Source: Balanoglossus misakiensis
Lineage: Eukaryota; Animalia; Hemichordata
DNA length: 64,000 bases
Direction: 5' to 3'
Assembly (NCBI GenBank): GCA_040954595.2
Contig: CM082590.2
Location: 6,572,001 to 6,636,000, forward strand
The position numbers were made by a program, and so were the translations under genes. A model generated the notes under the pieces. It was given only the letters and a program-made list of their open reading frames with translations. It ran no database searches and was not told the DNA's origin. Shown here piece after piece: positions 2,210 to 64,000 of this stretch (positions are counted from its first letter, which is position 1; the number at the start of each line of letters is the position of its first letter).

Positions 2210-2211
2210 TG

Positions 2212-2245
<34 letters not shown>

Positions 2246-7966: not shown

Positions 7967-8027
7967 AGACAGAAAAACCCCAACGAAACCAATAGGGCCC
8001 AAGCGCTGGTATGCGCTTGGGCCCTAA
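7967..8027 (-). mobile_element. Orphan palindromic terminus of a HINE-like unit whose body lies left of the window
   Basis: AGACAGAAAAACCCC...GGGCCCAAGCGC-TGGTAT-GCGCTTGGGCCCTAA stacked directly after the terminus of copy 1. Confidence 0.75.
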
Positions 8028-8037
8028 TAATAAAGAA

Positions 8038-9430
8038 TTAAAGCTGCAAGCAGCGTTGGCGGGGCACAAGCGGTTCCCATGGTGACCTGCAAATGCCACG
8101 GCTGTATCTGCTGGGGATACCAAGATATGGGAAAGTAGGTCAAAGGTCACCTGAGGTCACCCCAAATTTGGGCAAAAATATTGGACCCCATACTAGTCTA
8201 GATCCAACAAAAAACCAGACCCCTAGCCCTATTGGTTCGCCTGCAATTAGGTATGCACATAATTAATGAGGTCTTGTGTAAGACTCCATATGTGCTCCAT
8301 CGGCCCCCCAAAAGCCAGGACTCTAACTGCTGTGGATGCTGAGATATGGGAAAGTAGATCAAAGGTCATCCAAGGTCACCCAAAATTTGGGCATAAAATT
8401 TTGACCCCAGAGTGGCCCATGTCCAACTAAAACCAGACCTCTAGCCCTATTGGTTAGCCTAGAATTAGATATGCAGAAAAATGATGTTTCAGAAATAGGT
8501 CAAGGGTCATTGCCATGGGAAAGTAGATCAAAGGTCATCCAAGGTCACCCAAAATTTGGGCATAAAATTTTGAGCCCAGAGTGGGCCATGTCCAACTAAA
8601 ACCAGACCTCTAGCCCTATTGGTTAGCCTGGAATTAGATATGCAGAAAAATGATGTTTCAGAAATAGGTCAAGGGTCATTGCCAAAATTACCAAAATATT
8701 TGTGCCATGTCCTGGCAGCATTAGTACCCATGTCCACAAAATTCATGACTGTGGTGCTTTGACAAGAGGAGGTATGGGGAATATGCATATATAATTAGTT
8801 GTTTTAAAACTGGGTCAAAGGTCACGTGAAAATTGCCCCGAAAAATTGTGACAACTTCCGGTCATATGATGACTCATATCCAAAAAAAGAATTTCCGTGC
8901 TGTCAATATTTTGGCTACAAAACGGAATTTTCATTTTTCAATGGTTTTCCGAAAATCCAACATGGCCGCCATAATGATCGACCAATCACAGTGCGCTTCG
9001 CAAACTTGATAGACATAGGTTAGGTGACCATATGCCCCAAATCCCGTGACTCGGCAATCGCTGGTTCTGGAGAAGAAGATTTTTAAAGTTTTAAGTAGTT
9101 TTTCAGAAAAACAATTGTAGCAAAAAAACTTTATGTGTGACGTCATGATTTCAATAGGGTAAAATGATGGACAGAAGGTAGGCTACCTGCACACCAAATT
9201 TGAACTCGATCGGCCCAGTAGTTTTTGAGAAGGACTCGTTTAACGATTTTCAGGAAATCCAATATGGCCGCCAGGTCACGTGACTAATTAAATATTCACG
9301 AGCCACTGCATGTCTACTCATTGGCCCCTATCACCCTACCAAGTTTCAGCCCCCTAGGTGCAGCGGTTTTCCAGATCTACCTGGCCGAATTTCTCGGAAG
9401 AAGAAGAAGAAGAAGAAGAATAAAGAAGAA
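8038..9430 (-). mobile_element. Non-autonomous Helentron unit, subtype B (palindromic end displaced)
   Basis: Starts TTAAAGCTGCAAGCAGC hairpin plus subTIR GGGGCACAAGC; interrupted in the (GAA)n tract. Confidence 0.8.
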
Positions 9431-10858
9431 TTAAAGCTGCGAGCAGCATTGTCGGGCCCAAGCGCTGATCTTGAATTATATATGCACAGTATGAATGAGA
9501 AGAAACAGAATTTTCTATCGGATGTATTATCTCGTGACATAACAAGGATGTGTGTATTTTTGCTGCTGAAATAGGGTGAAGTAGGTCAAAGGTCACCTGA
9601 GGTCACCCAACATTTGGGCAATTTTTTTTACCCATACTGGTCCATGTCCAACAAAAACCAAAACTCTAGCTCTATTGGTTCGCCTGTAATTAGGTATGTG
9701 CATATTTAATGAGGTCAGCAGGTGTTACAGGTGACCCAAAAATGTGGCTTTACATTTTGGTCCCATCCTACCAAATGCCATGGCTGTATCTGCTCTGGAT
9801 GCTGAGATATGCGAAAGTAGGTCAAAGGTCACCAGAGGTCACCCAACATTTGGGCAAAAAATGGTGATCCCATACTGGTCCATGTCCAACAAAAACCAAA
9901 CCTCTAGCTCTATCGGTGCGCCTGTAATTAGCTATGCACATAATTCATGAGGTCAGCAGAGGTCAAAGGGGTCATGAAAAGTAGCAAAATATTTTGATCA
10001 CACACTAATCCACATTCATCAAAAACCAAACGTCTAGCCCTATAGGTTAGCCTGGAATTAGATATGCAGAAATAATAACGCGTGATAGGTAGGTCAAAGG
10101 TCATGTGAAAAATCGCCAAAAAATTGTAACATATTTTAGTCACATGACGATTGATATCCATAAAAAGAATTTGTATGCTATCAATTTTTAGACTAGAAAA
10201 AGGATTTTCAATTTTTCGCTGCTTTTTACAAAATCCAATATGGCCGCCATAATCTTTGACCAATCACAATGTTCTTTGCAAATATGATAGACAACAGTGT
10301 AGTGACCATACTCCCCGAATCTTGCGACTCAGTCATCGCCCGTTCTGGAGAAGAAGATTTTTGGAGTTTAACTATGGTTTTTCGAAAATCCAATATGGCC
10401 GCCATAATCTTCGACCAATCACAATGATCTTCGCAAACTTGATAGACATCAGTTAGGTGACCACATACCCTAAACCGCATGTCTCGGTTATCACCGGTTC
10501 TGGAGAAGAAGATTTTTGAAATTTAAGCCAGATTTCAGAAAAAAAATTGTAGCAAAAAAACTGCAACATTGACAGCAAAATTTCCAATTACAAAAATGAT
10601 GAGTAGAAGGTAGTCTACCTGCATGCCAAATTTGAAGTCGATCTGACTTGTAGTTTCTGAGATCTGAGATTTGCATTTTTTCAGAAAATCCAATATGGCT
10701 GCCAAGTCACGTGACTAATTAAGTATTCACAAATCACTGCACATCTACTCATTGACCTTGACCACTGTAGCAAGTTTGAGCAGTGTACCTGCAGTAGTTT
10801 CTGAGATTTAGTTGGCCGAAGAATTGACAGGAGAATAAAGAAAGAAAGAAAGAAAGAA
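9431..10858 (-). mobile_element. Non-autonomous Helentron unit, subtype C (palindromic end displaced)
   Basis: TTAAAGCTGCGAGCAGCATTGTCGGGCCCAAGCGCTGATC start; interrupted in (GAAA)n. Confidence 0.8.
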
Positions 10859-12346
10859 TTAAAGCTGCAAGCAGCATTGTCCGGGCCCAAGCTCTATTAT
10901 CTGATCTGATATTAGATATGCACATAATTAATGAGAAGAAACATAATGCTGTGTTTATCCCATGAAATATCAAGGTTATAACTATGTTTGGTGCTGATAT
11001 AGTGTTAAGTAGGTCAAAGGTCACCCAGAGGTCACCCACAATTTGGGCAGAAAATTTTGATCCATAGTGGTCCATGTCCAACAAAAACCAGACCTCTTGG
11101 CCTTTTGGTTAGCACGGAATTAGGTATGCACATAAATAATGAATTGAGCAGGGGTCACAGGTGACCCAAAACTTTGGCTTTTCATTATGGCCCCATACCT
11201 CCAAACTCCAAGGCTGTATATGCTGTGGATGTCGAGATATGCAAAAGTAGGTCAAAGGTCACCCGAGGTCACCCAACATTTGTGCAAAATATTTTGACCC
11301 CATACTGGTCCATGTATAACAAAAACCAAACCTCTAGGTCTATTTGTTCATCATTAATTAGGTATGTGCATATTTAATGAGGTCAGCAGAGGTCAAAAGG
11401 GGTCATGAAAAGTAGCAAAATTTTTTGATCACATACAAATCCACATACATCAAAAACCAAACTTATAGCCCTATTGGTTAGCCTGGAATTAGATATGCAG
11501 AAAAATGAAGCGTCAAAAGTAGGTCAAAGGTCATTGCCAAAATTACCAAAATATTTATAGCTAATTCTTGTCACATGATGATTCATATCCATAAAAAGAA
11601 TTTCTGTGCTATCAATGTTTAGGCTAGAAAGGGAATTTTTACTTTTTAATCGATTTTCACAAAATTCAATATGGCCGCCATAATCTTCGACCAATCACAT
11701 TCCCCTTCGCAAACTTGATAGACATCTGTTTAATGACCACACACACCAAATCTTGTGACTCAGTTATCGCCCGTTCTGGAGAAGAAGATTTTTGAAGTTT
11801 TACTATGGTTTTTCGAAAATCCAATATGGCCGCCATAATCTTCGACCAATCACAATGATCTTCGCAAACTTGATAGACATCAGTTAGGTGACCACATACC
11901 TCAAATGGCGTGACTCGGTTATCGCCGGTTCTGGAGAAGAAGATTTTTGAAAATTTGACCAGATTTCAGAAAAACAACTGTAGCAAAAAAACTGCAACAT
12001 TGACAGCATAATATCCAATTACAAAAATGATGGGCATAAGGTATACTAGCTGCACACCAAATTTGAAGTCAATCTGACTTGTAGTTTCTGAGATCTGAGA
12101 TTTGCATTTTTTCAGAAAATCCAATATGGCCGCCAGGTCACGTGACTAATTAAATATTCACGAGCCACTGCACATCTACTCATTGGCCCCTATCTGCCTA
12201 CCAAGTTTCAGCCTGGTTGGTGCTGCAGTTTTTGAGATTTAGGTGGCCGAAAAATGGAACCAAGAATAAAGAAGGAAAGAAAGAAAGACTGAAAAACCCC
12301 AACGAAACCAATAGGGCCCAAGTGCTGGTATGCGCTTGGGCCCTAA
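10859..12346 (-). mobile_element. Complete non-autonomous Helentron unit, subtype A
   Basis: Hairpin plus subTIR (TCCGGGCCCAAGCTCT) at left, GGGCCCAAG..CTTGGGCCCTAA palindrome at right. Confidence 0.85.
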
Positions 12347-13781
12347 TTAAAGCTGCAAGCAGCATTGTCCGGGCCCAAGCTCTATTATCTGATCTGATTA
12401 TTAGATATGCACATAATTAATGAGTAGAAACATAATGCTGTGTTTTATCCCATGAAATATCATGGTTATATCTATGTTTAGTGCTGATAAAGTGTTAAGT
12501 AGGTCAAAGGTCACCCAGAGGTCACCCATAATTTGGGCAGAAAATTTTGACCCATAGTGGTCCATGTCCAACAAAAACCAGACCTATAGCACTTTTGGTT
12601 AGCCCGGAATTAAGTATGCACATAAATAATGAGTTAAGCAGGTGTCACAGGTGACCCACAACTTTGGCTTTTCATTATGGCCCCATACCTCCAAACGCCA
12701 AGTCTGTATCTGCTGTGGATGCTGATATTTGCAAAAGTAGGTCAAAGGTCACCAGAGGTCACCCAACATTTGGGTAAAAACATTTGACCCCATACTAGTC
12801 CTGTCCAACAAAAACAAAGCCTCTAGGTCTATTGGTTCGCCTGTAATTAGCTATGCACATAATTAATGAGGTCAGCAGGGGTCAAAGGGGTCGTGAATTG
12901 TAGCAAAAAATTTTGATCACACACTTATCCACATACATCAAAAACCAAACTTATAGCCCTATTGGTTAGCCTGGAATTAGATATGCAGAAAAATGATGCG
13001 TCAAAAGTAGGTCAAAGGTCATTGCCAAAATTACCAAAATATTTATAGCATATTGTAGTCATATGATGATCCATATCCATAAAAAGAATTTCTGTGCTAT
13101 AAATTTTTAGGCTAGAAAGGGAATTTTTACTTTTTAATCGTTTTTCACAAAATCCAATATGGCCGCCATAATCTTCGACCAATCACTTTCCTCTTCGCAA
13201 ACTTGATAGACATCTGGGGAATGACCACACACACAAAATCTTGTGACTCGGTTATCACCGGTTTTCGAGAAGAAGATTTTTGAAATTTTACTAGGGTTTT
13301 TCGAAAATCCAATATGGCCGCCATAATCTTCGACCAATCACAATGATCTTCGCAAACTTGATAGACATCAGTTAGGTGACCACATACCCCAAACCCCGTG
13401 TCTCGGTTATCACCGGTTCTAGAGAAGAAGATTTTTGAAATTTAAGCCAGATTTCAGAAAAAAAATTGTAGCAAAAAAACTGCAACATTGACAGCATAAT
13501 TTCCAATTACAAAAATGTTTGACAGAAGGTAGTCTACCTGCACGCCAAATTTGAAGTCGATCTGACTTGTAGTTTCTGAGATCTGAGATTTGCATTTTTT
13601 CAGAAAATCCAAGATGGCCGCCAGGTCATGTGACTAATTAAAAATTCATGGGTTCAATGCACGACTACTCATTGACCTTGACCACTGTAGCAAGTTTGAG
13701 AACTGTACCTGCAGTGGTGTCTGAGATCTAGAGCGACAAAGAAATGACAGAAGAATAAAGAAAGAAGAAAGAAAGACAGAA
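12347..13781 (-). mobile_element. Non-autonomous Helentron unit, subtype A (palindromic end displaced)
   Basis: Same left terminus as 10859; interrupted at GACAGAA|TT. Confidence 0.8.
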
Positions 13782-15200
13782 TTAAAGCTGCGAGCAGCAT
13801 TGTCGGGCCCAAGCGCTGATCTTGAATTATATATGCACAGTATGAATGAGAAGAAACAGAATTGTTTATCGTATGTATTATCTCATGACATAATAAGGAT
13901 GTGTGTGTTTTTGCTGCTGAAATAGGGTGAAGTAGGTCAAAGGTCACCTGAGGTCACCCAACATTTGGGCAATTTTTTTTTTAACCCATACTGGTCCATG
14001 TCCAACAAAAAACAAAACTCTAGCTCTATTGGTTCGCCTGTAATTAGGTATGTGCATATTTAATGAGGTCAGCAGGTGTCACAGGTGACTCAAAAATGTG
14101 GCTTTACATTTTGGTCCCATCCTACCAAATGCCATGGCTGTATCTGCTCTGGATGCTGAGATATGCGAAAGTAGGTCAAAGGTCACCAGAGGTCACGCAA
14201 CATTTGGGCAAAAAATTTTGATCCCATACTGGTCTGTGTCCAACAAAAACCAAACCTCTAGCTCTATTGGTTCGCCTGTAATTAGCTATGCACATAATTA
14301 ATGAGGTCAGCAGAGGTCAAAGGGGTCATGAAAAGTAGCAAAATATTTTGATCACACACTAATCCACATTCATCAAAAACCAAACGTCTAGCCCTATAGG
14401 TTAGCCTGGAATTAGATATGCAGAAATAATAACGCGTGATAAGTAGGTCAAAGGTCATGTGAAAAATCGCCAAAAAATTGTAACATATTTTAGTCACATG
14501 ACGATTGATATCCATCAAAAGAATTTGTATGCTATCAATTTTTAGACTAGAAAAAGGAATTTCAATTTTTCACTGCTTTTTACAAAATCCAATATGGCCG
14601 CCATAATCTTCGACCAATCACAATGCTCTTTGCAAACTTGATAGACATCAGTGTAGTAACCATACTCCCCGAATCTTGCGACTCAGTCATCGCCCGTTCT
14701 GGAGAAGAAGATTTTTGGAGTTTAACTATGGTTTTTCGAAAATCCAATATGGCCGCCATAATCTTCGACCAATCACGATGATCTTCGCAAACTTGATAGA
14801 CATCAGTTAGGTGACCACATACCCCAAACCCCGTGTCTCGGTTATCACTGGTTCTGGAGAAGAAGATTTTTGAAATTTAAGCCAGATTTCAGAAAAAAAA
14901 TTGTAGCAAAAAAACTGCAACATTGACAGCAAAATTTCCAATTACAAAAATGATGGGTACAAGGTAGTCTACCTGCATGCCAAATTTGAAGTCGATCTGA
15001 CTTGTAGTTTCTGAGATCTGAGATTTGCATTTTTTCAGAAAATCCAATATGGCCGCCAGGTCACGTGACTAATTAAGTATTCACAAGTCACTGCACATCT
15101 ACTCATAGACCTTGACCACTGTAGCAAGTTTGAGCAGTGTACCTGCAGTAGTTTCTGAGATTTAGTTGGCCGAAGAATTGACACAAGAATAAAGAAAGAA
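13782..15200 (-). mobile_element. Non-autonomous Helentron unit, subtype C (palindromic end displaced)
   Basis: Same left terminus as 9431; interrupted at GAAAGAA|TT. Confidence 0.8.
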
Positions 15201-17488
15201 TTAAAGCTGCAAGCAGCATTGTCCGGGCCCAAGCTCTATTATCTGATCTGAAAATTTTGACTCATAGTGGTCCATGTCCAACAAAAACCAGACCTCTAGC
15301 CCTTTTGGTTAGCCCGGAATTAGGTATGCACATAAATAGTGAGTAAAGCAGGCGTCACAGGTGACCCAAAACTTTGGCTTTTCATTATGGCCCCATACCT
15401 CCAAATGCCAAGGCTGTGCCTGCTTTGGATGCTGAGATATGCAAAAGTAGGTCAAAGGTCATCTGAGGTCATCCAAAATTTGGGCAAAAAATTTTGACCC
15501 CATACTGGTCCATGTCCAACAAAAACCAAACCTCTAGCTCAATTGGTTCGCCTGTAATTAGCTATGCACATAATTAATGAGGTCAGCAGAGGTCAAAGGG
15601 GTCATGAAAAGTAGCAAAATATTTTGATCACACACTAATCCACATTCATCAAAAACCAAACGTCTAGCCCTACAGGTTAGCCTGGAATTAGATATGCAGA
15701 AATAATAACGTGTGATAAGTAGGTCAAAGGTCATGTGAAAAATCGCCAAAAATTTGTAACATATTGTAGTCATATGACGATTGATATCCATAAAAAGAAT
15801 TTGTATGCTATTAATTTTTATACTAGAAAAAGGAATTTTAATTTTTCACTGCTTTTTACAAAATCCAATATGGCCGCCATAATCTTCGACCAATCACATT
15901 CCTCTTCCCAAACTTGATAGACATCTGTTTAATGAACACACACACCAAATCTTGCGACTCGGTTATCACCGGTTCTTGAGAAGAAGATTTTTGAAATTTT
16001 ACTAGGGTTTTTCGAAAATCCAATATGGCCGCCATAATCTTCGACCAATCACAATGATCTTCGCAAACTTGATAGACATCAGTTAGGTGACCACATACCC
16101 CAAACCCCGTGTCTCGGTTATCACCGGTTCTGGAGAAGAAGATTTTTGAAATTTAAGCCAGATTTCAGAAAAAAAATTGTAGCAAAAAAACTGCAACTTT
16201 GTCAGCATAATTTCCAATTACAAAAATGATTGACAGAAGGTAGTCTACCTGCACGCCAAATTTGAAGTTGATCTGACTTGTAGTTTCTGAGATCTGAGAT
16301 TTGCATTTTTTCAGAAAATCCAAGATGGCCGCCAGGTCATGTGACTAATTAAAAATTCATGGGTTCAATGCACGACTACTCATTGACCTTGACCACTGTA
16401 GCAAGTTTGAGAACTGTACCTGCAGTGGTGTCTGAGATCTAGAGCGACAAAGAATTGACAGAAGAATAAAGAAAGAAGAAGGAAAGACAGATTAAAGCTG
16501 CAAGCAGCATTGTCCGGGCCCAAGCTCTATTATCTGATCTGATTATTAGATATGCACATAATTAATGTGTAGAAACATAATGCTGTGTTTTATCCCAAGA
16601 AATATCAAGGTTATATCTATGTTTGGTGCTGATATAGTGTTAAGTAGGGCAAAGGTCACCCAGGGGTCACCCACAATTTGGGGAGAATATTTTGACCCAT
16701 AGTGGTCCATGTCCAACAAAAACCAGACCTCTAGCCCTTTTGGTTAGCCCGGAATTAGGTATGCACATAAATAATGAGTTAAGCAGGTGTCACAGGTGAC
16801 CCAAAACTTTGGCTTTTCATTATGGCCCCATATCTCCAAATGCCAAGGCTGTACCTGCTTTGGATGCCGAGATATGCAAAAGTAGGTCAAAGGTCATCTG
16901 AGGTCACCCAAAATTTGGGCAGAAAATTTTTACCCATAGTGGTCCATGTCCAATAAAAACCAGACCTCTAGCTCTATTGGTTCGCCTGTAATTAGTTATG
17001 CACATAATTAATGAGGTCAGCAGAGGTCACAGGTGACCCAAAACTTTGGCTTTTCATAATGGCCCCATATCTCCGAATGCCAAGGCTGTACCTGCTTTGG
17101 ATGCCGAGATATTCAAAAGTAGGTCAAAGGTCACCGGAGGTCACCCAACATTTGGGCAAAATATTTTGACCCCATACTGATCCATGTCCAAAAAAACTCA
17201 AACCTTTAGGTCTATTGGTTAATCTGTAATTAGGTATGCGCATATTTAATGAGGTCAGCAGAGGTCAAAGTGGTCATGAAAAGTAGCGAAATTATTTGAT
17301 CACATACAAATCCACATACATCAAAAACCAAACTTATAGCCCTATTGGTTAGCCTGGAATTAGATATGCAGAAAAATGATGCGTCAAAAGTAGGTCAAAG
17401 GTCATTGCCAAAATTACCAAAATATTTATAGCTTATTCTTGTCATATGATGATTCATATCCATAAAAAGAATTTCTGTGCTATCAATT

Positions 17489-18130
17489 TGTAACGGCCTT
17501 GTTGATCCATTGAATTTGTATACATGTATATCTGTATGTATGTTATACCTGTATCTTATAGTAATTAGTTATTCAATTATTCATATGACGTAATAGTACT
17601 TACCTTCAATTGGTTGATCTTAATTATATGCAAACCACCTGGAAGTTTCATTTGACCAATGAACACAAGCTAATCTGGCACTATGATGTAATTGCTGATA
17701 TAAAAGGACATGGTGCATAAAATTGGTCAGTTCACCTCTGTAGCCAGACCGGCCACACACGTTGGAACTGACATGTATTTGTTCCATTTCAGGTTAGTTT
17801 CCTTGTACCTTACCTGTTGCTTGAAGCTTTGTATTTTGGTGCATTCTACCGACTCATTTCAGCACAAGTAATTGGTGTCTTTAACTTGCGTCAATTTTCC
17901 AATTGTATGTCTATATTTTTCACTTGCATGAATTTTGGTGTATTCTGTTGGAGGTGAACTCCCATACATGTGTGTAATTTAGCAGTTCACCTCTGTAGCC
18001 AGACCGGCCACACACGTTGGAACTGACATGTATTTGTTCCATTTCAGTTATTAAATGTAAGGCCTATGTCTTTGTTACCCGTAACCTGTTTGGTGTGAAT
18101 ATGTTGGAATGAACGGCGACAACCGTGACA
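17489..18130 (+). repeat. 5' LTR (642 bp)
   Basis: TGTAACGG...CCGTGACA; matches 27784-28425. Confidence 0.96.
17699..17732 (+). promoter_or_regulatory. LTR core promoter: TATA box plus initiator
   Basis: TATAAAAG at 17699, TCAGTT at 17727 (A is 30 nt after the TATA start), CCAAT just upstream. Confidence 0.65.
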
Positions 18131-18132
18131 AA

Positions 18133-18151
18133 TGGCGTAGTCGGCAGGATT
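18133..18151 (+). promoter_or_regulatory. Primer binding site complementary to the tRNA-Ser 3' end
   Basis: TGGCGTAGTCGGCAGGATT, reverse complement of ...AATCCTGCCGACTACG-CCA of metazoan tRNA-Ser; 2 nt after the LTR. Confidence 0.9.
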
Positions 18152-19215
18152 TGGCAATTCCTACGCAAGTTCTTTTTTCGGGACGGAGAGGATGATACTG
18201 ACAAGTGCCATGTTTTAACTGGTCAGAAGTGTCTGGACAACGGACAACGCCCAACCAGGTGTGTCTTTCGCTGAGCTGGACGTCCTTGGGGAGTCACCCG
18301 GACTGCAGACAGACGGGAGCCAGGTCCAAGCGTCAACGGCGAGGAAAATTCTCTGCAGAGTGCCAAGTGGTGAAGTCGCTGAACTGTTACCGGCCGGAAC
18401 TGTTTAGTGTGAAGTGTTCATCGCGGTATACAAGGTATTGTGTGTCCAGAACTTGACAGTGTTATTCCGTGCGAACTATAGACAGTGCGCATAAATTCCG
18501 TCCGTGGCGCATAGTTTCCATCTGTGATAACTTCGGACTTGAACTTGTGGACTGGGTATTTTATTGCCAACGAACTTTCTGGTTATTCGCCGTAGAACCT
18601 GGTGTAACGTAATGTTTGTAAATTTTTCTTAGAAATTTCAATATTGTCTATATAATGGAATGTGGTCAAAGTAGTTTTGACTTTGATTTAATTGTTGAAG
18701 TGGGCTCCATGTGGATATAAACCCCTGTTTTGTTGCCTTTAGCCTGCTTTAAACGAAAAAAAATATATATATAAATTTTATTTTCTTTCAACAGCATATT
18801 TTGGTTAAGTGCTGAAGTATAATTTTCTTTGTAAATTTCAGTTCATTATTTTCCAAACGACGTGGAAAAAAAAAATTGTCAGCACTTGTTGAAAAAAAAA
18901 TATTAAGTTATAAGTTAAATATTGTATATTGACTTGAGTTAGGTTATTATTGTATTAGTTATTTAGTTGTTTCATTATTATTGAGACTGTCCATGAATGG
19001 TCGTATTCATCCAAATCATACATTAGTCTCTATAGAACCTTTGGCAGTGTATGTAAGCTATTCTATGCTTATTTCATTCCCTGTTAACGTATGTGCTATG
19101 CCAGTAGATACTGATATTATTGTTAAGATTTTCCAGTGAAATAGCTTGCATTGCATCGTATTTAACGACACGTCAGAGTCCTCCCAAATTGCCTCTCATT
19201 TTATGGAAAAAAAAA

Positions 19216-20640: not shown

Positions 20641-20645
20641 GTCGG
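20598..20645 (+). promoter_or_regulatory. -1 ribosomal frameshift signal between gag and pol
   Basis: T TTA AAT heptamer in gag frame; -1 frame open into pol; downstream stem CGACC..GCAT..ATGC..GGTCG. Confidence 0.75.
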
Positions 20646-50180: not shown

Positions 50181-50182
50181 TG

Positions 50183-50216
<34 letters not shown>

Positions 50217-50322
50217 CATGCAGGCATGTATGTATGTATGTATGTATGTATGTATGTATGTATGTATGTATGTATGTATGTATGTATGTATGTATGTATG
50301 TATGTATGTATGTATGTATGTA
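50181..50322. repeat. Compound (GT)n/(GTAT)n microsatellite
   Basis: Read directly. Confidence 0.97.
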
Positions 50323-53300
50323 GTCATTTTCTATGTATATATAAAATCTATGTTAAATATAAAAAGTATTTTAGAACAATTTACATTGCTGCTTGGTATG
50401 ATATAATTACAATTTAACAATTTTATTGCTACACCATGGGGTATTCACTTCTGTGTGTAAATTTGTTTGTATGATCATATGGTATGCAATATTGAGTACA
50501 TGTACATAATTCACCTGCTTTTAATACTGTGTAATTTAACAATTTTATTGCTACACCATGGGGTATTCACTTCTGTGTGTACATTTGTTTGTATGATCAT
50601 ATGGTATGCAATATTGAGTACATGTACATAATTCACCTGCTTTTAATACTGTGTGGTATAGCGTATATATTGCATTTTGTAAAAAGAAACATGAAATACT
50701 GTATTTTGAACAACTTATTGTACTGGATGATTTTTTATTACAGTAAAGATATTTGCCTGCATTACGAGAGTAATAGAAATAATTTAAGTTGTACTTTTTA
50801 TTCTGAAATAAGTTTCTTGATGTTTGGTATTCCATGTAAATAGCCAATTTTGAGTCAAGATAGTTATTTTATAACATGATTTGAAATTGTCATTTGTATT
50901 ATCAAGAATGGTTTCAATCAAATAATTATGTATTTTCATTTTGTGTTGACTTAATATTCAAAACTGGACCTGTTGTTTGACTTATTGAAACACGGTAAAC
51001 TGTATAGGGTCACATACACACCATTAAGACGGTTCTGAAGCGTCTCAGATCAGATACCATCTTAAAGAATCAGGTGTGGACAGTGTTTAGTGGTTCTGAA
51101 ATTGCTTAGATTTGAGACAGCATTTGCCGGTCAGACCGGAGCCGGTGTAAAGAATTACTGTAACACCTCTCCGCAACCCATTGTCCATGGGACTAAGCCT
51201 CAGCGCCCCTACTTATGGTGGGTTCACATCTGGGCCCATGGCCGGGCAAAACGTGTCACTGATGATTGTGACAAGACAAGCTAATCTTTAGTCCCCGTTC
51301 ACATTGTGATTGGCACAGTCCTGGCCATTGGTGTCTCGCCAACCTTTCACCTTATAAAGCAGAACCATGTTGGTCCTCTAATGGTTGTTCATACGATTTT
51401 CTTCATTGTCAAATGATGGACTACACTATTATGTCAATCTGGGACCAGATTCGGACAAAACGTGTCCACACACACCGTAGTGGGACCAGAGTCGGACCAG
51501 AGTAGGATACAAACCAACCCATTCAACTGGGACAAAAATTGTCCGGACAAAGGTCGGCCAGACCCGTTCTGAGTATTGTGAACAGCCTAATAAACTGTGT
51601 GTGTGTGCAGCGACTTAAAGGATTAATGCTCTGTGTTTACCAGTACAGTACTGTACTGGTGAACTATGCTTGTATATCAACATACAAGATTGAACATTCA
51701 CATAAATAATTTATGATGTCCACCCAGTTTTCCACTGTGTGCTAAACTTTTATCCATGTATTTGAATATATAGCCAGTGTTGCAAACTATTTAGACCACA
51801 TGGATCTTGGCATGAGATCTCAGAGTGTAGTATTCTTTCATGTATAACTGCCATGTACAATGCCATGGCAATGTTATTTGTCAAAAGGAAACGTACTTTG
51901 GTTCAGGTATTCATTTCGTATCACACACAAAATCACAACTTTACTTACAGCAAAGGGGTATTTACTGACCCCTTTTTACGTTATGCACTGACAGCATATT
52001 GCACAGTCAGTTACTTAATGCAGGTACTCTCTGTATTCTTGAATGATATCAAAAAGGGCAAACAAAAGCTACTTTGTACCTTTAACAAATGATCTGCAAT
52101 TAAGGCTTGTACACAATCAAGTTGTCAGATTACGTTTAATGACTATTTCTGTCAATGCTATGTCCCGTTTGATTTTCTAAAATTGTGCACAACAAGAAAT
52201 GTCTTAATGGATATGCTGAACTGTATTTTAAAATTCAAGTAGACTTTTGTCAAGGTCAGATTTGCTTTGTTGTATACTAGATATGTCCTCATAATACATA
52301 TATGTTCTTAAGTATTTGTCGTGTTAAATATGCACTGTATCAAATGGATGTTCAAACAATTTAGAAAGATGCTAACTTAATTTCACTAATCCTCTTTTTC
52401 AGAAATTAAATGGTGTCTGAACTTATTATTTAGTTATTATTATTAGTTATTATTATACTTGGCCATTGTCAGCTGGATATAATTGCTTAAAACTGTGAAC
52501 AATTGTAATCTGTGTTTGTTTAGTTTCTTGCAATAACAAAAACCAACCTCAACTGATGTCAACCATTTGTTTTATGTGCTTCAGATAAACCTGTAAGTTG
52601 AATCATTGCTTTTTAACATAAGCCTTTTACTGTAGCCATCTCTTTATTTTACTCTACATTATAGGTCGCTGACCACTTAAAACAAAATGTCCACGTCTCA
52701 CTTTCGTGTCTCTCTGTACTCTGTACAATCTATCTGGTTTGGTAGATTTTCCGGATACCAAGATAAAGAAAACTTGAAGGTCTAATACACAAATATTTCT
52801 CAAATAATGTTGTCACATACTAGTGGAGATCCAAAACACAAAACATGTAAGCCCTCTTATTTTTAAGGATACTATTTGTTGTAGGCAAAATAAGGAGGTG
52901 AAGTATAAGAACGCATTAAGTGTTTCAACATATCACGATAATGAAAACTAAAAGGTCATCCCAAGGTTACCCAAAAATTTGTCAAAAATTTGGTCCCATA
53001 CTGGTCCCAGCTTCCCTTCTGCCACTATTGGTCAGCGTAAAATTTAATGTGGTAAGGTGTCCGACAACATGAGTAAAGCGGTATCTGCCCTGGATGCCGA
53101 GATTTGTAAAATTAGGTCAAAGTTCACAAAAAAATTGCTCCAAAATATTTTGATGCCATACTGGTCCATGCCCAACTGAAATGGAACTGCTAGCTGTGTT
53201 GGTTAGCCTGGAATTAGGTATGTGCATAATTAATGAGGTTAAGAAGGTGTCACAGATTAACCCAAAATTTAGCTTTTCATTTTTGTCCCATCCCTAAAAA

Positions 53301-55937
53301 AACAAAGGATGTAACTCCTGTAAAGGTCAGGTCAGGTCACCCTAAATTTTGGCAAAAGATTGTGACCCCATATTGGTCCATGTTCAACAAAAACCAGACC
53401 TCTATTCCATTTGGTAGGCCTGGAATCAGGTATGCACGTAATTAATGAGTCAAGCAGGTGTCACAGGTGACCCCAAAATTTGCCTTTTAATTTTGATCCC
53501 ATCCCTCGAAAGGACAAGGCTGTAGCTACTGTTGGTGCCGAGATATGGTAAAGTAGGTTAAAAGTCACCTCAGTTCATCCAAAATTTGGGCAAAAACTTT
53601 TGAATTCAACAAAAACACACCTCTAGCCCTATTGGTTCGCTTGGAATTATATATGCGAATAATTAATGGGGTAAATTGTGGGATTCGGTGAGGTGTTCCA
53701 TCCCTCCAAATGCTAAGCCTGTACCTGCAGTGGATGTCAAGATATGAGAAAGTAGGTAAAAGGTCACTGAGGTCACCCAAAATTCTTTGACCAAATACTG
53801 GTCCATGTCCAAAAAAAACAAAAACTCTAGATCTATTAGTTCGTCTGTAATTAGGTATGCGCATACTTAATGAGCTAAGCAGGTGTCACAGGTGACCCAA
53901 AACTTTGGCTTTTCATTATGGCCCCATACCTCCAAACGCCAAGGCTGTATCTGCTGTAGATGTCGAGATATGCAAAAGTAGGTCAAAGGTCACCCGAGGT
54001 CATCCAACATTTGGGCAAAATATTTTGACCCCATACTGATCCATGTCCAGAAAAAAACAAACCTCTAGGTCATTTGGTTCATCTGTAATTAGGTATGCGC
54101 ATATTTAATGAGGTCAGCAGAGGTCAAAGGGGTCATGAAAAGTAGCAAAAATTTTTGATCACATACAAAACCACATACATCAAAAACCAAACTTATAGCC
54201 CTATTGGTTAGCCTGGAATTAGATATGCAGAAAAATGATGCGTCAAAAGTAGGTCAAAGGTCATTGCCAAAATTACCAAAATATTTATAGCTTATTCTTG
54301 TCATATGATGATTCATATCCATAAAAAGAATTTCTGTGCTATCAATTTTTAGGCTAGAAACAGAATTTTTACTTTTTAATCGTTGTTCACAAAATCCAAT
54401 ATGGCCGCCAAAATCTTCGACCAATCACAATGATCTTCGCAAACTTGATAGACATCTGTTTAATGACCACACACACCAAATCTTGTGACTCGGTTATCGC
54501 CGGTTCTTGAGAAGAAGATTTTTGAAATTTTACTAGGGTTTTTCGAAAATCCAATATGGCCGCCATAATCTTCGATGTTTAGTGCTGATATAGTGTTAAG
54601 TATGTCAAAGGTCACCAACAATTTGGGCAGAAAATTTTGACCCATAGTGGTCCATGTCCAACAAAAACCAGACCTCTAGCCCTTTTGGTTAGCCCGGAAT
54701 TAGGTATGCACATAAATAATGAGTTAAGCAGGTGTCACAGGTGACCCAAAACTTTGGCTTTTCATTATGGCCCTATACCTCCAAACACCAAGGCTGTATC
54801 TGCTGTGGATGTCAAGATATGCCAAAGTAGGTCAAAGGTCACCCGAGGTCACCCAACATTTGGGCAAAAAATTTTGACCCCATACTGGTCCATGTATAAC
54901 AAAAACAAAACCTCTAGGTCTATTGGTTCATCATTAATTAGGTATGCGCATATTTAATGAGGTCACCAGAGGTCAAAGGGGTCATGAAAAGTAGCAAAAT
55001 TTTTTGATCACATACAAATCCACATACATCAGAAACCAAACTTATAGCCCTATTGGTTAGCCTGGAATTAGATATGCAGAAAAATGATTCGTCAAAAGTA
55101 GGTCAAAGGTCATTGCCAAAATTACCAAAATATTTATAGCTTATTCTTGTCATATGATGATTCATATCCATAAAAAGAATTTCTGTGCTATCAATTTTTA
55201 GGCTAGAAAAGGAATTTTTACTTTTTAATCGTTTTTCACAAAATCCAATATGGCCGCCATAATCTTCGACCAATCAAATTCCCCTTCGCAAACTTGATAG
55301 ACATCTGTTTAATGACCACACACACCAAATCTTGTGACTCGGTTATCGCCCGTTCTGGAGAAGAAGATTTTTGAAGTTTTACTATGGTTTTTCGAAAATC
55401 CAATATGGCCGCCATAATCTTCGACCAATCACAATGATCTTCGCAAACTTGATAGACATCTGTTAGGTGACCACATACCCCAAACGGCGTGACTCGGTTA
55501 TCGCCGGTTCTGGAGAAGAAGATTTTTGAAATTTAAGCCAGATTTCAGAAAAAAAATTGTAGCAAAAAAACTGCAACATTGTCAGCATAATTTCCAATTA
55601 CAAAAATGATGGGCAGAAGGTAGTCTACCAGCATGCCAAATTTGAAGTTGATCTGACTTGTAGTTTCTGATATCTGAGATTTGCATTTTTTTAGAAAATC
55701 CAAGATGGCCGCCAGGTCACGTGACTAGTTAAAAATTCACAGGTTCAATGCACGACTACTCATTGACCTTGACCACTGTAGCAAGTTTCAGAAGTGTACC
55801 TGCAGCGGTGTCTGAGATCTAGAGCGACAAAGAATTGACACAAGAATAAAGAAAGAAAGAAAGAAGAAAGAAGGAAAGACAGAAAAACCCCAACGAAACC
55901 AATAGGGCCCAAGCGCTGGTATGCGCTTGGGCCCTAA

Positions 55938-57206
55938 TTAAAGCTGCAAGCAGCGTTGGCGGGGCACAAGCGGTTCCCATGGTAAGCAGCAAATGCCAAG
56001 GCTGTATCTGCTGTGGATACCAAGATATTGGAAAGTAGGTCAAAGGTCACCTGAGGTCACCCCAAATTTGGGCAAAAAAATCGGACCCCATACTTGTCTA
56101 GGTCCAACAAAAACCAGACCCCTAGCTCTATTGGTTCGCCTAGAATTAGGTATGCGCATAATTAATGAGGTATTGTGTAAGACTCCTTATGTGCTCCATC
56201 GGCCCCCCAAAAGCCAGGACTCTAACTGCTGTGGATGCTGAGATATGGGAAAGTAGATCAAAGGTCATCCAAGGTCACCCAAAATTTGGGCATAAAATTT
56301 TGACCCCAAAGTCGGCCATGTCCAACTAAAAACAGACCTCTAGCCCTATTGGTTAGCCTGGAATTAGATATGCAGAAACATGATGTTTCAGAAATAGGTC
56401 AAGGTTCATTGCCAAAATTACAAAAATATTTGTGTCATGTCCTGGCAGCATTGGTACCCATGTCCACAAAATTCATGACTGTGGTGCTTTTACAAGAGGA
56501 GGTATGGGGAATATGCATATATAATTAGTTGTTTTAAAACTGGGTCAAAGGTCATGTAAAAATTGCCCCGAAAAATTGTGACAACTTCCGGTCATATGAT
56601 GACTCATATCCAAAAAAAGAATTTCCATGCTGTCAACATTTTGGCTACAAAACGGAATTATCACTTTTCAATGGTTTTCCGAAAATCCAACATGGCCGCC
56701 ATAATGATCGACCAATCACAATGCGCTTCGCAAACTTGATAGACATAGGTTAGGTGACCACATTCCCCAAATCCCGTGACTCGGCAATCGCTGGTTCTGG
56801 AGAAGAAGATTTTTAAAGTTTTAAGTAGTTTTTCAGAAAAACAATTGTAGCAAAAAAACTTTATGTGTGACGTCATGATTTCAATGGGGTAAAATGATGG
56901 ACAGAAGGTAGGCTACCTGCACACCAAATTTGAACTCGATCGGCCCAGCAGTTTTTGAGAAGGACTCGTTTAACGATTTTCAGGAAATCCAATATGGCCG
57001 CCAGGTCACGTGACTAATTAAATATTCACGAGCCACTGCACGTCTACTCATTGGCCCCTATTACCCTACCAAGTTTCAGCCCCCTAGGTGCAGCGGTTTT
57101 CCAGATCTACCTGGCCGAATTTCTCGGAAGAAGAAGAATAATAATAAAGAAGAAATATTCCAACAATACCAATAGGGGCACAAGCCCGATAGGCTTGTGC
57201 CCCTAA
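55938..57206 (-). mobile_element. Complete non-autonomous Helentron unit, subtype B
   Basis: subTIR GGGGCACAAGC at left; palindrome TAGGGGCACAAGCC-CGATA-GGCTTGTGCCCCTAA at right. Confidence 0.87.
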
Positions 57207-60200
57207 TTAAAGCTGCAAGCAGCATTGTCGGGCCCAAGCGCTGATCCGGAATTATATATGCACAGTATGAATGACAAGAAACAGAATGCTCTATCAGGTT
57301 TTTTATCTCATGACATAACAAGGCCATGTGTTTTTTTGGTGCAGAAATAGAGTAAAGTAGGTCAAAGGTCACCTGAGGTCACCCAAATTTTGGGAAATTT
57401 TTTTGGACCCATATTCGTCCATGTCCAACAAAAACCAAAACTCTAGCTCTATTGGTTCGCCTGTAATTAGGTATGTGCATATTTAATGAGGTCAGCAGGT
57501 GTCACAGGTGACCCAAAAATGTGGCTTTACATTTTGGTCCTATCCTTCCAAATGCCAAGGCTGTATCTGCTCTGGATGCTGAGATATGCGAAAGTAGGTC
57601 AAAGGTCACCAGAGGTCATCAACATTTGGGCAAAACATGTTGACCCCATACTGGTCCATGTCCAACAAAAACCAAACAACTAGCTCTATTGGTTCGCCTG
57701 TAATTAGCTATGCACATAATTAATGAGGTCAACAGAGGTCAAAGGGGTCATGAAAAGTAGCAAAATATTTTGATCACACACTAATCCACATACATCAAAA
57801 ACTAAACGTCTAGCCCTATAGGTTAGCCTGGAATTAGATATGCAGAAATAATAACGTGCGAAAATTAGGTCAAAGGTCATGTGAAAAATCGCCAAAAATG
57901 TGTAACATATTTTAGTCATATGGCGATTGATATCCATGAAAAGAATTTGTATGCTATTAATTTTTAGACTAGGAAAAGGAATTTCAATTTTTCACTGCTT
58001 TTTACAAAATCCAATATGGCCGCCATAATCTTCGACCAATCACAATGCTCTTTGCAAACTTGATAGACATCAGTGTAGTGACCATACTCCCCGAATCTTG
58101 CGACTCAGTTATCGCCCGTTCTGGAGAAGAAGATTTTTGGAGTTTTACTATGGTTTTTCGAAAATCCAATATGGCCGCCATAATCTTCGACCAATCACAA
58201 TGCTTCTTATCAAACTTGATAGACATCTGTTAGGTGACCACATACACCAAACCCCGTGACTCGGTTATCACCGGTTCTGGAGAAGAAGATTTTTGAAATT
58301 TAAGCCAGATTTCAGAAAAAAAAATTGTAGCAAAAAAACTGCAACATTTACAGCAAAATATCCAATTACAAAAATAATGGGCATATGGTAGTCTACCTGC
58401 ATGCCAAATTTGAAGTCGATCTGACTTGTAGTTTCTGAGATCTGAGATTTGCATTTTTTCAGAAAATCCAATATGGCCACCAGGTCACGTGACTAATTAA
58501 AAATTCAAGAGTTCAATGCACGACTACCCATTGACCTTGACCACTGTAGCAAGTTTGAGAAGTGTACCTGCAGCGGTGTCTGAGATCTAGAGCGACAAAG
58601 AAATGACACAAGAATAAAGAAAGAAGAAAGAAAGACAGAATTAAAGCTGCAAGCAGCATTGTCGGGCCCAAGCGCTGATCTCGAATTATATATGCACAGT
58701 ATGAATGAGAAGAAACAGAATTTTCTATCTGGTGTATTATCTCATGACATAACAAGGACGTGTGTATTTTTGCTGCTGAAATAGGGTGAAGTAGGTCAAA
58801 GGTCACCTGAGGTCACCCAACATTTGGGCAAAATTTCTTGACCCATACTGGTCCATGTCCAACAAAAACCAAAACTCTAGCTCTATTGGTTCGCCTGTAA
58901 TTAGGTATGTGCATGTTTAATGAGGTCAGCAGGTGTCACAGGTGACCCAAAAATGTGGCTTTACATTTTGGTCCCATCCTGCAAAATGCCATGGCTGTAT
59001 CTGCTCTGGATGCTGAGATATGCGAAAGTAGGTCAAAGGTCACCCAAAATTTGGGCAACAAATTTTGACCCCATATTGGTCCATGTCCAACAAAAACCAA
59101 ACCTCTAGCTCTATTGGTTCGCCTGTAATTAGGTATGTGCATGTTTAATGAGGTCAGCAGGTGTCACAGGTGACCCAAAAATGTGGCTTTACATTTTGGT
59201 CCCATCCTGCCAAATGCCAAGGCTGTATCTGCTCTGGATGCTAAGATATGCGAAAGTAGGTCAAAGGTCACCAGAGGTCATCCAACATTTGGGCAAAAAA
59301 TTTTGACCCCATACTGGTCCATTTCCAACAAAAACCAAACCACTAGCTTTATTGGTTCGCCTGTAATTAGCTATGCACATAATTAATGAGGTCAACAGAG
59401 GTCAAAGGGGTCATGAAAAGTAGCAAAATATTTTGATCACACACTAATCCACATGCATCAAAAACCAAACGTCTAGCCCTATAGGTTAGCCTTGATATAG
59501 TTATGCAGAAATAATAACGTGTAACATATTTTAGTCATATGACGATTGATATCCATGAAAAAAATTTGTATGCTATCAATTTTTAGACTAGGAAAAGGAA
59601 TTTCAATTTTTCACTGCTTTTTACAAAATCCAATATGGCCGCCATAATCTTCGACCAATCACAATGCTCTTTGCAAACTGGATAGACATCAGTGTAGTGA
59701 CCATACTCCCCGAATCTTGCGACTCAGTTATTGCCCGTTCTGGAGAAAAAGATTTTTGCAGTTTTACTATGGTTTTTCGAAAATCCAATATGGCCGCCAT
59801 AATCTTCGACCAATCACAATGCTTCTTATCAAACTTGATAAACATCAGTTAGGTGACCACATACCCCAAATCCCGTGACTCGGTTATCGCCGGTTCTTGA
59901 GAAGAAGATTTTTGAAGTTTTAGTTAGATTTTTTGGAAATCCAATATGGCGGCCAAAGTCACGTGACCGCTCGAAATTTTATTATCAAACTTTGTAGGGC
60001 AGAGGCCATGTGTACTATGTACCAAATTTGAACTTGATTTGCCTTGTAGTTTTTGAGAAGAAGCCATTTACATTTTTTCAGAAAATCCAATATGGCCGCC
60101 AGGTCACGTGACTAATTAAGTATTCACAAGTCACTGCACATCTACTCATTGACCTTGACCACTGTAGCAAGTTTGAGCAGTGTACCTGCAGTAGTTTCAG

Positions 60201-60349
60201 AGATTTAGTTGGCCGAAGAAATGACACAAGAATAAAGAAAGAAAAATTCCAACGAAACCAATAGGGCCCAAGCGCTTGTGCGCGCTTGGGCCCTAAAAAC
60301 CCCAACGAAACCAATAGGGCCCAAGCGCTGGTATGCGCTTGGGCCCTAA
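57207..60349 (-). mobile_element. Subtype C unit split by a nested insertion (body 57207-58640, terminus 60297-60349)
   Basis: GACAGAA + AAACCCC rebuilds GACAGAAAAACCCC. Confidence 0.8.
58641..60296 (-). mobile_element. Complete subtype C unit nested in the previous unit
   Basis: Left hairpin at 58641; right palindrome GGGCCCAAGCGC-TTGTGC-GCGCTTGGGCCCTAA. Confidence 0.82.
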
Positions 60350-62477
60350 TTAAAGCTGCGAGCAGCATTGTCGGGCCCAAGCGCTGATCTTGAATTATAT
60401 ATGCACAGTATGAATGAGAAGAAACAGAATTTTCTATCGGATGTATTATCGCATGACATAACAAGGATGTGTGTATTATTGCTGCTGAAATAGGGTGAAG
60501 TAGGTCAAAGGTCACCTGAGGTCACCCAACATTTGGGCAATTTTTTTTTACCCATACTGGTCCATGTCCAACAAAAACCAAAACTCTAGCTCTATTGGTT
60601 CGCCTGTAATTAGGTATGTGCATATTTAATGAGGTCAGCAGGTGTCACAGGTGACCCAAAAATGTGGCTGTACATTTTGGCCCCATCCTGCCAAATGCCA
60701 AGGCTGTATCTGCTCTGGATGCTGAGATATGCGAAAGTGGGTCAAAGGTCACCTGAGGTCACCAAACATTTGGGCAAAAATGTTTGACCCATACTGGTCC
60801 TTGTCAAACAAAAACTAAAACTCTAGCTCCATTGGTTCGCCTGTAATTAGGTATGTGCATAGTTAATGAGGTCAGCAGGTGTCACAGGTGACCCAAAAAT
60901 GTGGCTGTACATTTTGGCCCCATCCTGCCAAATGCCAAGGCTGTATCTGCTCTGGATGCTGAGATATGCGAAAGTGGGTCAAAGGTCACCTGAGATCACC
61001 AAACATTTGGGCAAATTTTTTGACCCATACTGGTCCATGTCAAACAAAAACTAAAACTCTAGCTCTATTGGTTCGCCTGTAATTAGATATGTGCATATTT
61101 AATGAGGTCAGCAGGTGTCACAGGTGACCCAAAAATGTCGCTGTACATTTTTGCCCCATCCTGCCAAATGCCAAGGCTGTATCTGCTCTGGATGCTGAGA
61201 TATGCGAAAGTGGGTCAAAGGTCACCTGAGGTCACCAAACATTTGGGCAAAATTTTTTGACCCATACTGGTCCATGTCAAACAAAAACTAAAACTCTAGC
61301 TCTATTGGTTCGCCTGTAATTAGGTATGTGCATATTTAATGAGGTCAGCAGGTGTCACAGGTGACCCAAAAATGTGGCTGTACATTTTGGCCCCATCCTG
61401 CCAAATGCCAAGGCTCTATCTGCTCTGGATGCTGAGATATGCGAAAGTAGGTCAAAGGTCACCAGAGGTCACCCAACATTTGGGCAAAAAATTTTGTTCC
61501 CATAGTGGTCCATGTCCAACAAAAACCAAACCTCTAGCTCTATTGGTTCGCCTGTAATTAGCTATGTGCATAATTAATGAGGTCAGCAGAGGTCAAAGGG
61601 GTCATAAGAAGTAGCAAAATATTTTGATCACACACTAATCCACATGCATCAAAAACCAAACGTCTAGCCCTATAGGTTAGCCTGGAAATAGATATGCAGA
61701 AATAATAACGTGTGAAAAGTAGGTCAAAGGTCATGTGAAAAATCGCCAAAAAATTGTAACATAATTTAGTCACATGACGATTGATATCCATAAAAAGAGT
61801 TTGTATGCTATCAATTTTTAGACTAGGAAAAGGAATTTCAATTTTTCACTGCTTTTTACAAAATCCAATATGGCCGCCATAATCTTCGACCAATCACAAT
61901 GCTCTTTGCAAACTTGATAGACATCAGTGAAGTGACCAAACTCCCCGAATCTTGCGACTCAGTTATCGCCCGTTCTGGAGAAGAAGATTTTTTGAGTTTT
62001 ACTATGGTTTTTCGAAAATCCAATATGGCCGCCATAATCTTCGACCAATCACAATGATCTTCGCAAACTTGATAGACATCAGTTAGGTGACCACATACAC
62101 CAAACCCCGTGTCTCGGTTGTCACCGGTTCTGGAGAAGAAGATTTTTGAAATTTTGACCAGATTTCAGAAAAAAAATTGTAGCAAAAAAACTGCAACATT
62201 GACAGCATAATTTCCAATTACAAAAATGATGGGCAGAAGGTAGTCTACCTGCACGCCAAATTTGAAGTCGATCTGACTTGTAGTTTCTGAGATCTGAGAT
62301 TTGCATTTTTTCAGAAAATCCAAGATGGCCGCCAGGTCATGTGACTAATTAAAAATTCAAGGGTTCAATGCACGACTACTCATTGACCTTGACCACTGTA
62401 GCAAGTTTCAGAAGTGTACCTGCAGTGGTCTCTGAGATCTAGAGCGACAAAGAATTGACACAAGAATAAAGAAAGAA
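60350..62477 (-). mobile_element. Subtype C unit with an expanded ~237-bp module (palindromic end displaced)
   Basis: Left terminus at 60350; module recurs near 60630, 60868, 61104, 61341. Confidence 0.8.
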
Positions 62478-63691
62478 TTAAAGCTGCAAGCAGCGTTGGG
62501 GGGGCACAAGCGGTTCCCATGGTGACCAGCAAATGCCACGGCTGTATCTGCTGGAGATACCAAGATATGGGAAAGTAGGTCAAAGGTCACCTGAGGTCAC
62601 CCCAAATTTCGGCAAAAAAATTGGACCCCATACTAGTCTAGATCCAACAAAAAACCAGACCCCTAGCCCTATTGGTTCACCTGCAATTAGGTATGCACAT
62701 AATTAATGAGGTCTTGTGTAAGACTCCATTATGTGCTCAATACCCATAAAAGCCAGGGCTCTAACTGCTCTGGATGCTGAGATATGGGAAAGTAGATCAA
62801 AGGTCACCCAAGGTCACCCAAAATTAGGGCATCAAATTTTGACCCCAGAGTGGCCCATGTCCAACTAAAACCAGACCTCTAGCCCTATTGGTTAGCCTGG
62901 AATTAGATATGCAGAAAAATGATGTTTCAGAAATAGGTCAAGGGTCATTGCCAAAATTACAAAAATATTTGTGTCATGTCCTGGCAGCATTGGTACCCAT
63001 GTCCACAAAATTCATGACTGTGGTGCTTTTACAAGAGGAGGTATGGGGAATATGCATATATAATTAGTTGTTTTAAAACTGGGTCAAAGGTCATGTGAAA
63101 ATTGCCCCGAAAAATTGTGACAACTTCCGGTCATATGATGACTCATATCCAAAAAAAGAATTTCCGTGCTGTCAACATTTTGGCTACAAAACAGAATTTT
63201 CATTTTTCAATGGTTTTCCGAAAATCCAACATGGCCGCCATAATGATCGACCAATCACAGTGCGCTTCGCAAACTTGATAGACATAGGTTAGGTGACCAC
63301 ATACCCCGAATCCCGTGACTCGGCAATCGCTGGTTCTGGAGAAGAAGATTTTTAAAGTTTTAAGTAGTTTTTCAGAAAAACAGTTGTAGCAAAAAAAACG
63401 GTTTGTGTGACGTCATGATTTCAATTGGGTAAAATGATGGACGGAAGGTAGGCTACCTGCACACCAAATTTGAACTCGATCGGCCCAGTAGTTTTTGAGA
63501 AGGACTCGTTTAACGATTTTCAGGAAATCCAATATGGCCGCCAGGTCACGTGACTAATTAAATATTCACGAGCCACTGCACGTCTACTCATTGGCCCCTA
63601 TCACCCTATGAAGTTTCAGCCCCCTAGGTGCTGCGGTTTTCCTGATCTACCTGGCCGAATTTTGGGGAAGAAGAAGAAGAAGAAGAATAAA
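62478..63691 (-). mobile_element. Subtype B unit (palindromic end displaced)
   Basis: GCTGCAAGCAGC plus GGGGCACAAGC; interrupted after (GAA)n. Confidence 0.8.
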
Positions 63692-64000
63692 TTAAAGCTG
63701 CAAGCAGCATTGTCCGGGCCCAAGCTCTATTATCTGATCTGATTATTAGATATGCACATAATTAATGAGTAGAAACATAATGCTGTGTTTTATCACATGA
63801 AATATCAAGGTTATATCTATGTTTGGTGTTGATATAATGTTAAGTAGGTCAAAGGTCACCCAGAGGTCACCCACAATTTGAGCAGAAAATTTTGACCCAT
63901 AGTGGTCCATGTCCAACAAAAACCAGACCTCTAGCCCTTTTGGTTAGCCCGGAATTAGGTATGCACATAAATAATGAGTTAAGCAGGTGTCACAGGTGAC
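63692..64000 (-). mobile_element. Subtype A unit running off the window
   Basis: TTAAAGCTGCAAGCAGCATTGTCCGGGCCCAAGCTCT. Confidence 0.8.

Follow-up and report, generated by a model that had tools for sequence, protein, structure and literature searches.

The stretch analysed here, referred to below as the window, comprises 64,000 nt of contig CM082590.2 of Balanoglossus misakiensis, and 56 kb of it are occupied by a nest of Helentrons that all face the same way, each inserted no more than about 80 bases from the end of another copy. The nest is built of one autonomous element, the right part of a second, and non-autonomous units (HINEs) of three subtypes, A, B and C. We call the 17-mer TTAAAGCTGCRAGCAGC at the start of a unit its open, the terminal palindrome at the other end its close, and the A/G-rich subterminal microsatellite just inside a close the pocket. 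Coordinates follow the unit register ATTAAAG...CCCTA on the + strand, which places an open at 8037 where the initial annotation of this DNA had 8038. The features are as follows, "unclosed" meaning that the close does not lie within the window.

1-7965, +: second autonomous Helentron, right part, in a host pocket; 99.94% identical to 47972-55936
7966-8026, +: 61 nt surviving from the end of a host unit (stacked close) whose open is to the left of the window
8027-8036, +: 10 nt surviving from a B-type pocket that has been cut at either side; corresponds in sequence to the B tail at 57110-57205
8037-9429, +: HINE, B type, cut in pocket, unclosed
9430-10857, +: HINE, C type, cut in pocket, unclosed
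10858-12345, +: complete HINE, A type, 1488 bp
12346-13780, +: HINE, A type, cut after GACAGA, unclosed
13781-15199, +: HINE, C type, cut in pocket, unclosed
15200-29210, +: HINE, A type, with a short internal deletion; its own parts are 15200-16490 and 29157-29210; hosts unit 16491
16491-29156, +: complete A-type HINE sitting at G|A within the pocket of 15200, with a Gypsy in its body
17489-28425, +: Gypsy long terminal repeat (LTR) retrotransposon, a bystander; identical 642-bp LTRs, AATT duplication
29211-30630, +: HINE, A type, cut in pocket, unclosed
30631-55936, +: autonomous Helentron, 25,306 bp, A-type ends
35744-43312, +: open frame of 2522 aa with OTU, DUF6570, Helitron_like_N (Rep), PIF1 helicase and Exo_endo_phos endonuclease matches
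55830-55894, +: example of a pocket, A/G-rich (T/C-rich on the - strand), the insertion zone
55903-55936, -: example of a terminal palindrome, subterminal inverted repeat (subTIR) plus inverted repeat with a 14-bp stem (-18.9 kcal/mol, z -7.4); the 5' end in HINE convention
55937-57205, +: complete B-type HINE of 1269 bp, each end with a GGGGCACAAGC subTIR
57206-60348, +: HINE, C type; its own parts are 57206-58639 and 60296-60348; hosts unit 58640
58640-60295, +: complete HINE with a start of the C type, sitting at A|A within the pocket of 57206
60349-62476, +: C-type HINE in which a 237-bp internal repeat is expanded; cut in pocket, unclosed
62477-63690, +: HINE, B type, cut in pocket, unclosed
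63691-64000, +: HINE start, A type, runs off the window

The open occurs 15 times in the window, always on the + strand, where chance would supply 1e-5 copies; the - strand of the window has none, and allowing up to three mismatches adds none on either strand. All 15 opens lie where the initial annotation had placed them, as do its seven closes (one of them, at 29157, a CCCGTAA variant), and two that it overlooked, at 7966 and 8027 in its numbering, bring the closes to nine. It had also held that every open follows either a close directly or a pocket. This is so for all 15, with five in the former context and ten in the latter, although the pocket at 8038, 9431 and 63692 is a (GAA)n tract of the B type and not the GACAGAAAAACCCC form that had been described. 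Parsed as a stack, the window gives seven matched pairs, two closes whose units open to the left, and eight units left open, the same eight that had been predicted, and the nest is thus eight deep at the right edge. Three levels are packed into 70 bases at the left end, where the close at 7965 is followed by a 61-nt remainder containing another close (8026), then by 10 nt from a pocket of the B type, and then by an open. Opens are absent from the unit bodies, from the interior of the 25 kb element and from the Gypsy in the window, as had been claimed; however, we rejected the last two as controls, since both insertions are very young and their emptiness says little.

In two nests both halves of the host lie inside the window (16492 in 15201 and 58641 in 57207, in the earlier numbering). 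Excision of 16491-29156 in silico yields GACAG|AAAAACCCC, and that of 58640-60295 yields GACAGA|AAAACCCC. Both restored sites read GACAG-A5-CCCC, the form of all five uninterrupted runs, and neither carries a target-site duplication (TSD). Every insertion falls between a purine and an A on the + strand, which on the - strand is T|T at 14 of the 15 junctions and T|C at one. The initial annotation took insertion at TT without a TSD from the literature; the lack of a TSD is upheld at both empty sites, TT at all but the one T|C junction, and its picture of nesting in a single orientation is likewise supported. The cuts are restricted to about 50-80 nt from the 14-bp hairpin and leave host remainders of 53-61 nt; one pocket position has been used three times, with either the host or the insert differing (15200, 30631, 62477).

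The termini are consistent with this pairing. SubTIRs are present at both ends in 7/7 pairs (GGGCCCAAGC, or GGGGCACAAGC in the B type) and agree in type in all of them, although only the B pair discriminates. The terminal palindrome next to the subTIR formed 14-bp stems in both cases folded (z -7.4 and -7.5). Beyond the 3' subTIR a GCTGC/GCAGC repeat is kept in 15/15 units, and it folds no better than shuffled sequences (z 1.2 and 0.9). The HINEs have central repeats of 155 and 237 bp.

The 2522-aa frame of the 25,306-bp unit matches Helitron_like_N (2.4e-30), with the HxH and tyrosine motifs present, PIF1 (2.4e-26), Exo_endo_phos (1.2e-07, aa 2312-2503) and DUF6570 (8.7e-21), the last being a marker of the HLE2 group (PMC11417382). 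Judged by these domain matches, the unit is a Helentron (HLE2) with an intact Rep-helicase-endonuclease reading frame. Window positions 1-7965 match the end of this copy over 7965 bp with five mismatches and no gap, and the right flanks of the two differ; we therefore take them for two very recent insertions into one block. The LTRs of the Gypsy show no difference in 642 bp, and its persistence in a unit body indicates that insertions into bodies are tolerated.

Both elements have further internal structure. Inside its two ends the autonomous copy carries direct repeats of about 1.16 kb (30756-31916 and 54572-55721, 92% identical), each resembling the body of an A-type HINE, and recombination between them would yield a full-length HINE in the fashion of a solo LTR. 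About seven tandem copies of 963 bp (98-99.9%) occupy 43179-49928, the first beginning in the last 134 bp of the transposase frame, which itself contains in-frame tandem repeats at 35840-36134 and 37359-37854 (45 bp and about 66 bp). Within the Gypsy, and despite the identical LTRs, pol is split between RNase H and integrase by a 2.9 kb insert (23177-26037) that is bounded by terminal inverted repeats of 32 bp (CAGTATAG...) and contains two arrays of a 69-bp unit in inverted orientation. The gag frame (19108-20640) begins with a weak RRM match (4.6e-4, just under the cut-off), followed by PNMA-like and zinc-knuckle domains.

How strongly the insertions favour unit ends was measured on the six complete units, taking the last 100 nt plus the left junction as the terminal zone. 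This zone holds 5.6-7.8% of R|A and T|Y sites. After merging three pairs of junctions that may be identical by descent, 12 conservative junctions remain, and all 12 are terminal. As an A-rich null we used 42 dispersed flanks of related elements in the contigs of another animal, among the matches listed (three of 45 that do not end in A were excluded); the zone then has 25-42% of the target weight by position matrix and 11-41% by composition models, giving p ~2e-5 at best for a null that is borrowed from another animal and for junctions treated as independent. The bias to the terminal zone is real, and chance falls far short of explaining it even if targets are modelled as A-rich. What it is a bias towards is a different matter. 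The window has 11 long purine tracts, each of them a pocket on the + strand, and therefore cannot separate preference for such a tract from recognition of the element's own end. The initial annotation had the family targeting its own terminus; of this, the strong terminal bias stands, whereas the terminus as such is here indistinguishable from an A/G tract. Purines number 23-29 per 30 nt at nine pocket sites, compared with 12-26 at dispersed sites. Scored against the relative's dispersed targets, whose leave-one-out median is 4.7 bits, eight of the ten pocket sites reach 4.4 to 6.6 bits; the left contexts of the five direct junctions score -6.4 to -8.8.

Relatives of the family were found by a metagenome search that returned at least 118 loci; 64 were discarded, almost all of them on visual inspection as fortuitous matches, and L020 as a duplicate. 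In the MDSP and MDSQ contigs, which we take to be fish-like, 45 of 51 opens have unrelated A-rich flanks and six follow CCCTAA, five of these with family homology, among the matches listed. Related ends elsewhere are thus largely dispersed, in contrast to the 15/15 nested in the window. By prefix, and again among the matches listed, opens on a family end make up 1/41 in MDSQ (95% interval 0.06-13%) and 4/10 in MDSP (five with L007); the MDSP share is likely inflated by the assembly of high-copy junctions, and an enrichment of family-end insertion in these contigs is not established. The dispersed MDSP and MDSQ loci (L002-L116) have C at -8 (0.40), A at -7 and -6 (0.74, 0.78) and A at -1 (0.85), and the C together with the A pair at -7/-6 may be an extended target motif.

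Stacked and direct junctions also occur outside the window, in L030, L101, L001, L024, L106, L107 and L089. L030 and L101 show close, pocket remainder, close and open in the order seen here, and L107 and L089, from other records, have a close directly joined to an open, with a (GAA)n pocket in L089 much like that of the B type. The L089 junction (223-326), in an unrelated metagenome record, is 86% like the B-type end of the window. Three B. misakiensis sequencing runs (X1-X3) come from one sample, which may be the source of the window; for these, the best-supported matches were used, pocket 55780-55888 was masked, and depths are not copy numbers. Two joints in these runs have no counterpart in the window: in X1 (depth 648.5) a B-pocket remainder comes after a close of A/C type, and in X2 (depth 600) an open adjoins a B pocket. 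Like junctions therefore exist beyond the window. Three long contigs of depth 19-105 start at an open preceded by unaligned letters (X1 record 1, X2 record 9, X3 record 17) and are likely dispersed copies. A scan of viral contigs gave two matches, both chance-like.

On balance we think it probable that the nest arose by separate TSD-free insertions into the A/G-rich tract some 50-80 bases inside palindromic ends, or at re-used sites, through a transposase that favours T|T or T|C ahead of a T-rich run. An enzyme with this preference would meet such a run in the 5' microsatellite of every copy of its own element, each new copy would supply another pocket, and the strand asymmetry of the tract would fix the orientation. 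Because a unit starts with A and the context on its left is untouched, a site would outlast each insertion into it; a newcomer would then land just left of the resident's first A, producing a close|open junction with the youngest unit leftmost. The cut may come from the fused AP-type endonuclease, a role proposed as a hypothesis for Helentrons (PMC4067079). The direct junctions are better read as such site re-use than as new targets, because their left contexts score so poorly while pockets score like dispersed targets. In the chain 30631-55937-57206-60349 the leftmost unit is the near-identical autonomous copy, in line with the predicted polarity; were the order reversed, six more insertions would have had to follow an event that is itself very recent.

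Several points weigh against this proposal. The age order rests on one element in one chain, and just two nests close within the window. Two pocket sites, 16491 (-0.7) and 8037 (-0.3), score poorly, the left context of 8037 being broken by a close. The target model, taken from another animal, explains only about one third of the bias and leaves a residual p of ~2e-5; that tract preference would suffice by itself thus goes beyond what the borrowed model shows, and reaching 15/15 would require a tract preference sharper than the relative's or an extra pull from the adjacent hairpin.

That residual also speaks for a transposase that attaches in trans to the palindrome or subTIR of a resident copy and inserts a new copy at the closest T|Y it can use, so that closeness to the end rather than the tract would be the main determinant; this possibility is compatible with tract preference, but we regard it as unlikely. 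It would account for cuts that lie only 50-80 nt from the hairpin and for the high-scoring sites in unit bodies that were left unused, and the repeated 5' ends of 31-85 nt in the Fusarium element FoHeli span a comparable distance (PMC5148889). On the other hand, most related ends in the other animal are dispersed at A-rich sites, the pocket sites are already good targets, and the direct junctions need no recognition of a hairpin if they are re-used sites. We are equally doubtful of the broader proposition that the transposase of this clade homes in trans on a resident hairpin and inserts on one strand only, 50-80 nt inward of it, so that any copy seeds a polar array which extends itself, and that heterochromatic or centromeric blocks across several lineages of animals arise from such arrays; if true, it would be the DNA-transposon counterpart of self-targeting retroelements.

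An array resembling a nest could also result if unequal crossing-over rearranged rolling-circle concatemers whose ends had been bypassed or truncated, or composites in which the 5' end is doubled. Helitrons are known to join head to tail and to form tandem arrays of truncated copies (PMC5876387; PMC12628747, citing Xiong 2016), and FoHeli composites carrying several 5' ends transpose as a whole (PMC5148889). In the window, the units have a mosaic look, and three pairs of junctions may each share one ancestral insertion. We consider this origin improbable, however, as the left part and the remainder of the host fit base for base in both closed nests and the two autonomous copies differ in their right flanks. 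Nor are there near-identical neighbours with one common cut point: unit-to-unit identity is 72-97%, adjoining units differ in subtype or are clearly diverged, and the cut points are several. A fresh concatemer and self-copying in cis were both rejected on this comparison, in which no two units are identical. Still less probable, in our judgement, is that ordinary TT preference scattered insertions throughout the units and that only terminal ones persisted or were amplified in a gene-poor block, which would then act as a safe harbour. DINE-1-like elements do gather in heterochromatin (PMC4067079), and oyster loci hold shuffled, nested Helitron parts (PMC12628747); against this, no degraded open is found in any body or on the - strand, the Gypsy persists in a body, and insertion into a pocket likewise splits the host's end. 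Mis-assembly of a high-copy repeat is hardly credible. The family is of very high copy in the runs and no contig among the matches listed spans the stretch, but the units differ, their junctions are exact to the base, and similar ones are present in contigs independent of this one.

If insertion into tracts and re-used sites is indeed how the nest grew, it shows how a dispersed element can give rise to long arrays on one strand without concatemers or target duplication, and it would explain why such arrays are annotated as satellites or as elements with several ends. Because the target sites in the block recur and are exact to the base, a polarity of growth is predicted for it, and its autonomous copy is both intact and very young, tract preference and terminus recognition can be put to a direct test. 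Preferential insertion into copies of the same element is known, by other transposition chemistry, for DIRS-1, Zepp and MITE multimers.

The elements themselves resemble the known Helentron/HINE/DINE-1 group (Thomas et al., 2014; PMC4067079) and the HLE2 of HELIANO (PMC11417382), with a Rep-PIF1-AP endonuclease frame that includes OTU and DUF6570, and with subTIRs, a 5' inverted repeat, a microsatellite, central repeats and a TT target without TSD; where that group has a short 3' stem-loop, the units here have the short palindrome described above, which folds no better than shuffles. Because the small units show the HINE plan on the - strand, the close of the initial annotation is the HINE 5' end and the pocket is the usual 5' microsatellite; the orientation of the reading frame is the reverse of that in the HINE convention, as it also is in Helentron-Da-40 and HLE2-reverse (PMC4067079, PMC11417382). 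T-rich preference, lack of a TSD and the 5' microsatellite are known HINE traits (PMC4067079, PMC7492417), and oyster HINEs likewise prefer T-rich sites and form shuffled nested loci (PMC7492417, PMC12628747). In contrast, the accessible portions of PMC4067079 and PMC11417382 report neither insertion into the element's own microsatellite nor deep nests. A literature search by titles and the starts of abstracts, with few subscription papers, returned no multi-level, in-place Helentron nest in the element's own microsatellite, and the available text of PMC2773423 and PMC6581046 holds no precedent for one.

The closest parallel is FoHeli, the HLE2 of Fusarium, in which up to five repeated 5' ends have been ascribed to self-insertion and one copy lies 2 bp from another's end (PMC5148889, PMC13342296). 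The stacked closes described here are the same end in HINE orientation, and the nest is in fact an unusually deep animal variant of the self-insertion habit already proposed for that element. FoHeli, as far as described there, consists mostly of composites with one 3' end, whereas the present block, in an animal, keeps hosts and inserts in situ together with the two halves of the site and stacks three subtypes to a depth of at least eight over 56 kb. Maize Helitrons insert near each other, and nesting has been proposed as a source of multiple termini; these are HLE1 elements with an A|T target, and the accessible text describes no defined pocket for them (PMC3288121), unlike the HLE2 pocket seen here. 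In the double-insertion model, a preserved target lets later copies form head-to-tail dimers at one site as a substrate for satellites (McGurk and Barbash, 2018; PMC5932611). That model needs a TSD, while here the element's first base would keep the site and each copy adds a new one. Finally, the telomere-inserting Helitrons of Paramecium, a third clade, derive their polarity from one strand of an asymmetric telomeric repeat (PMC13085455); their target is a repeat of the host, whereas in this block the target is part of the element itself.

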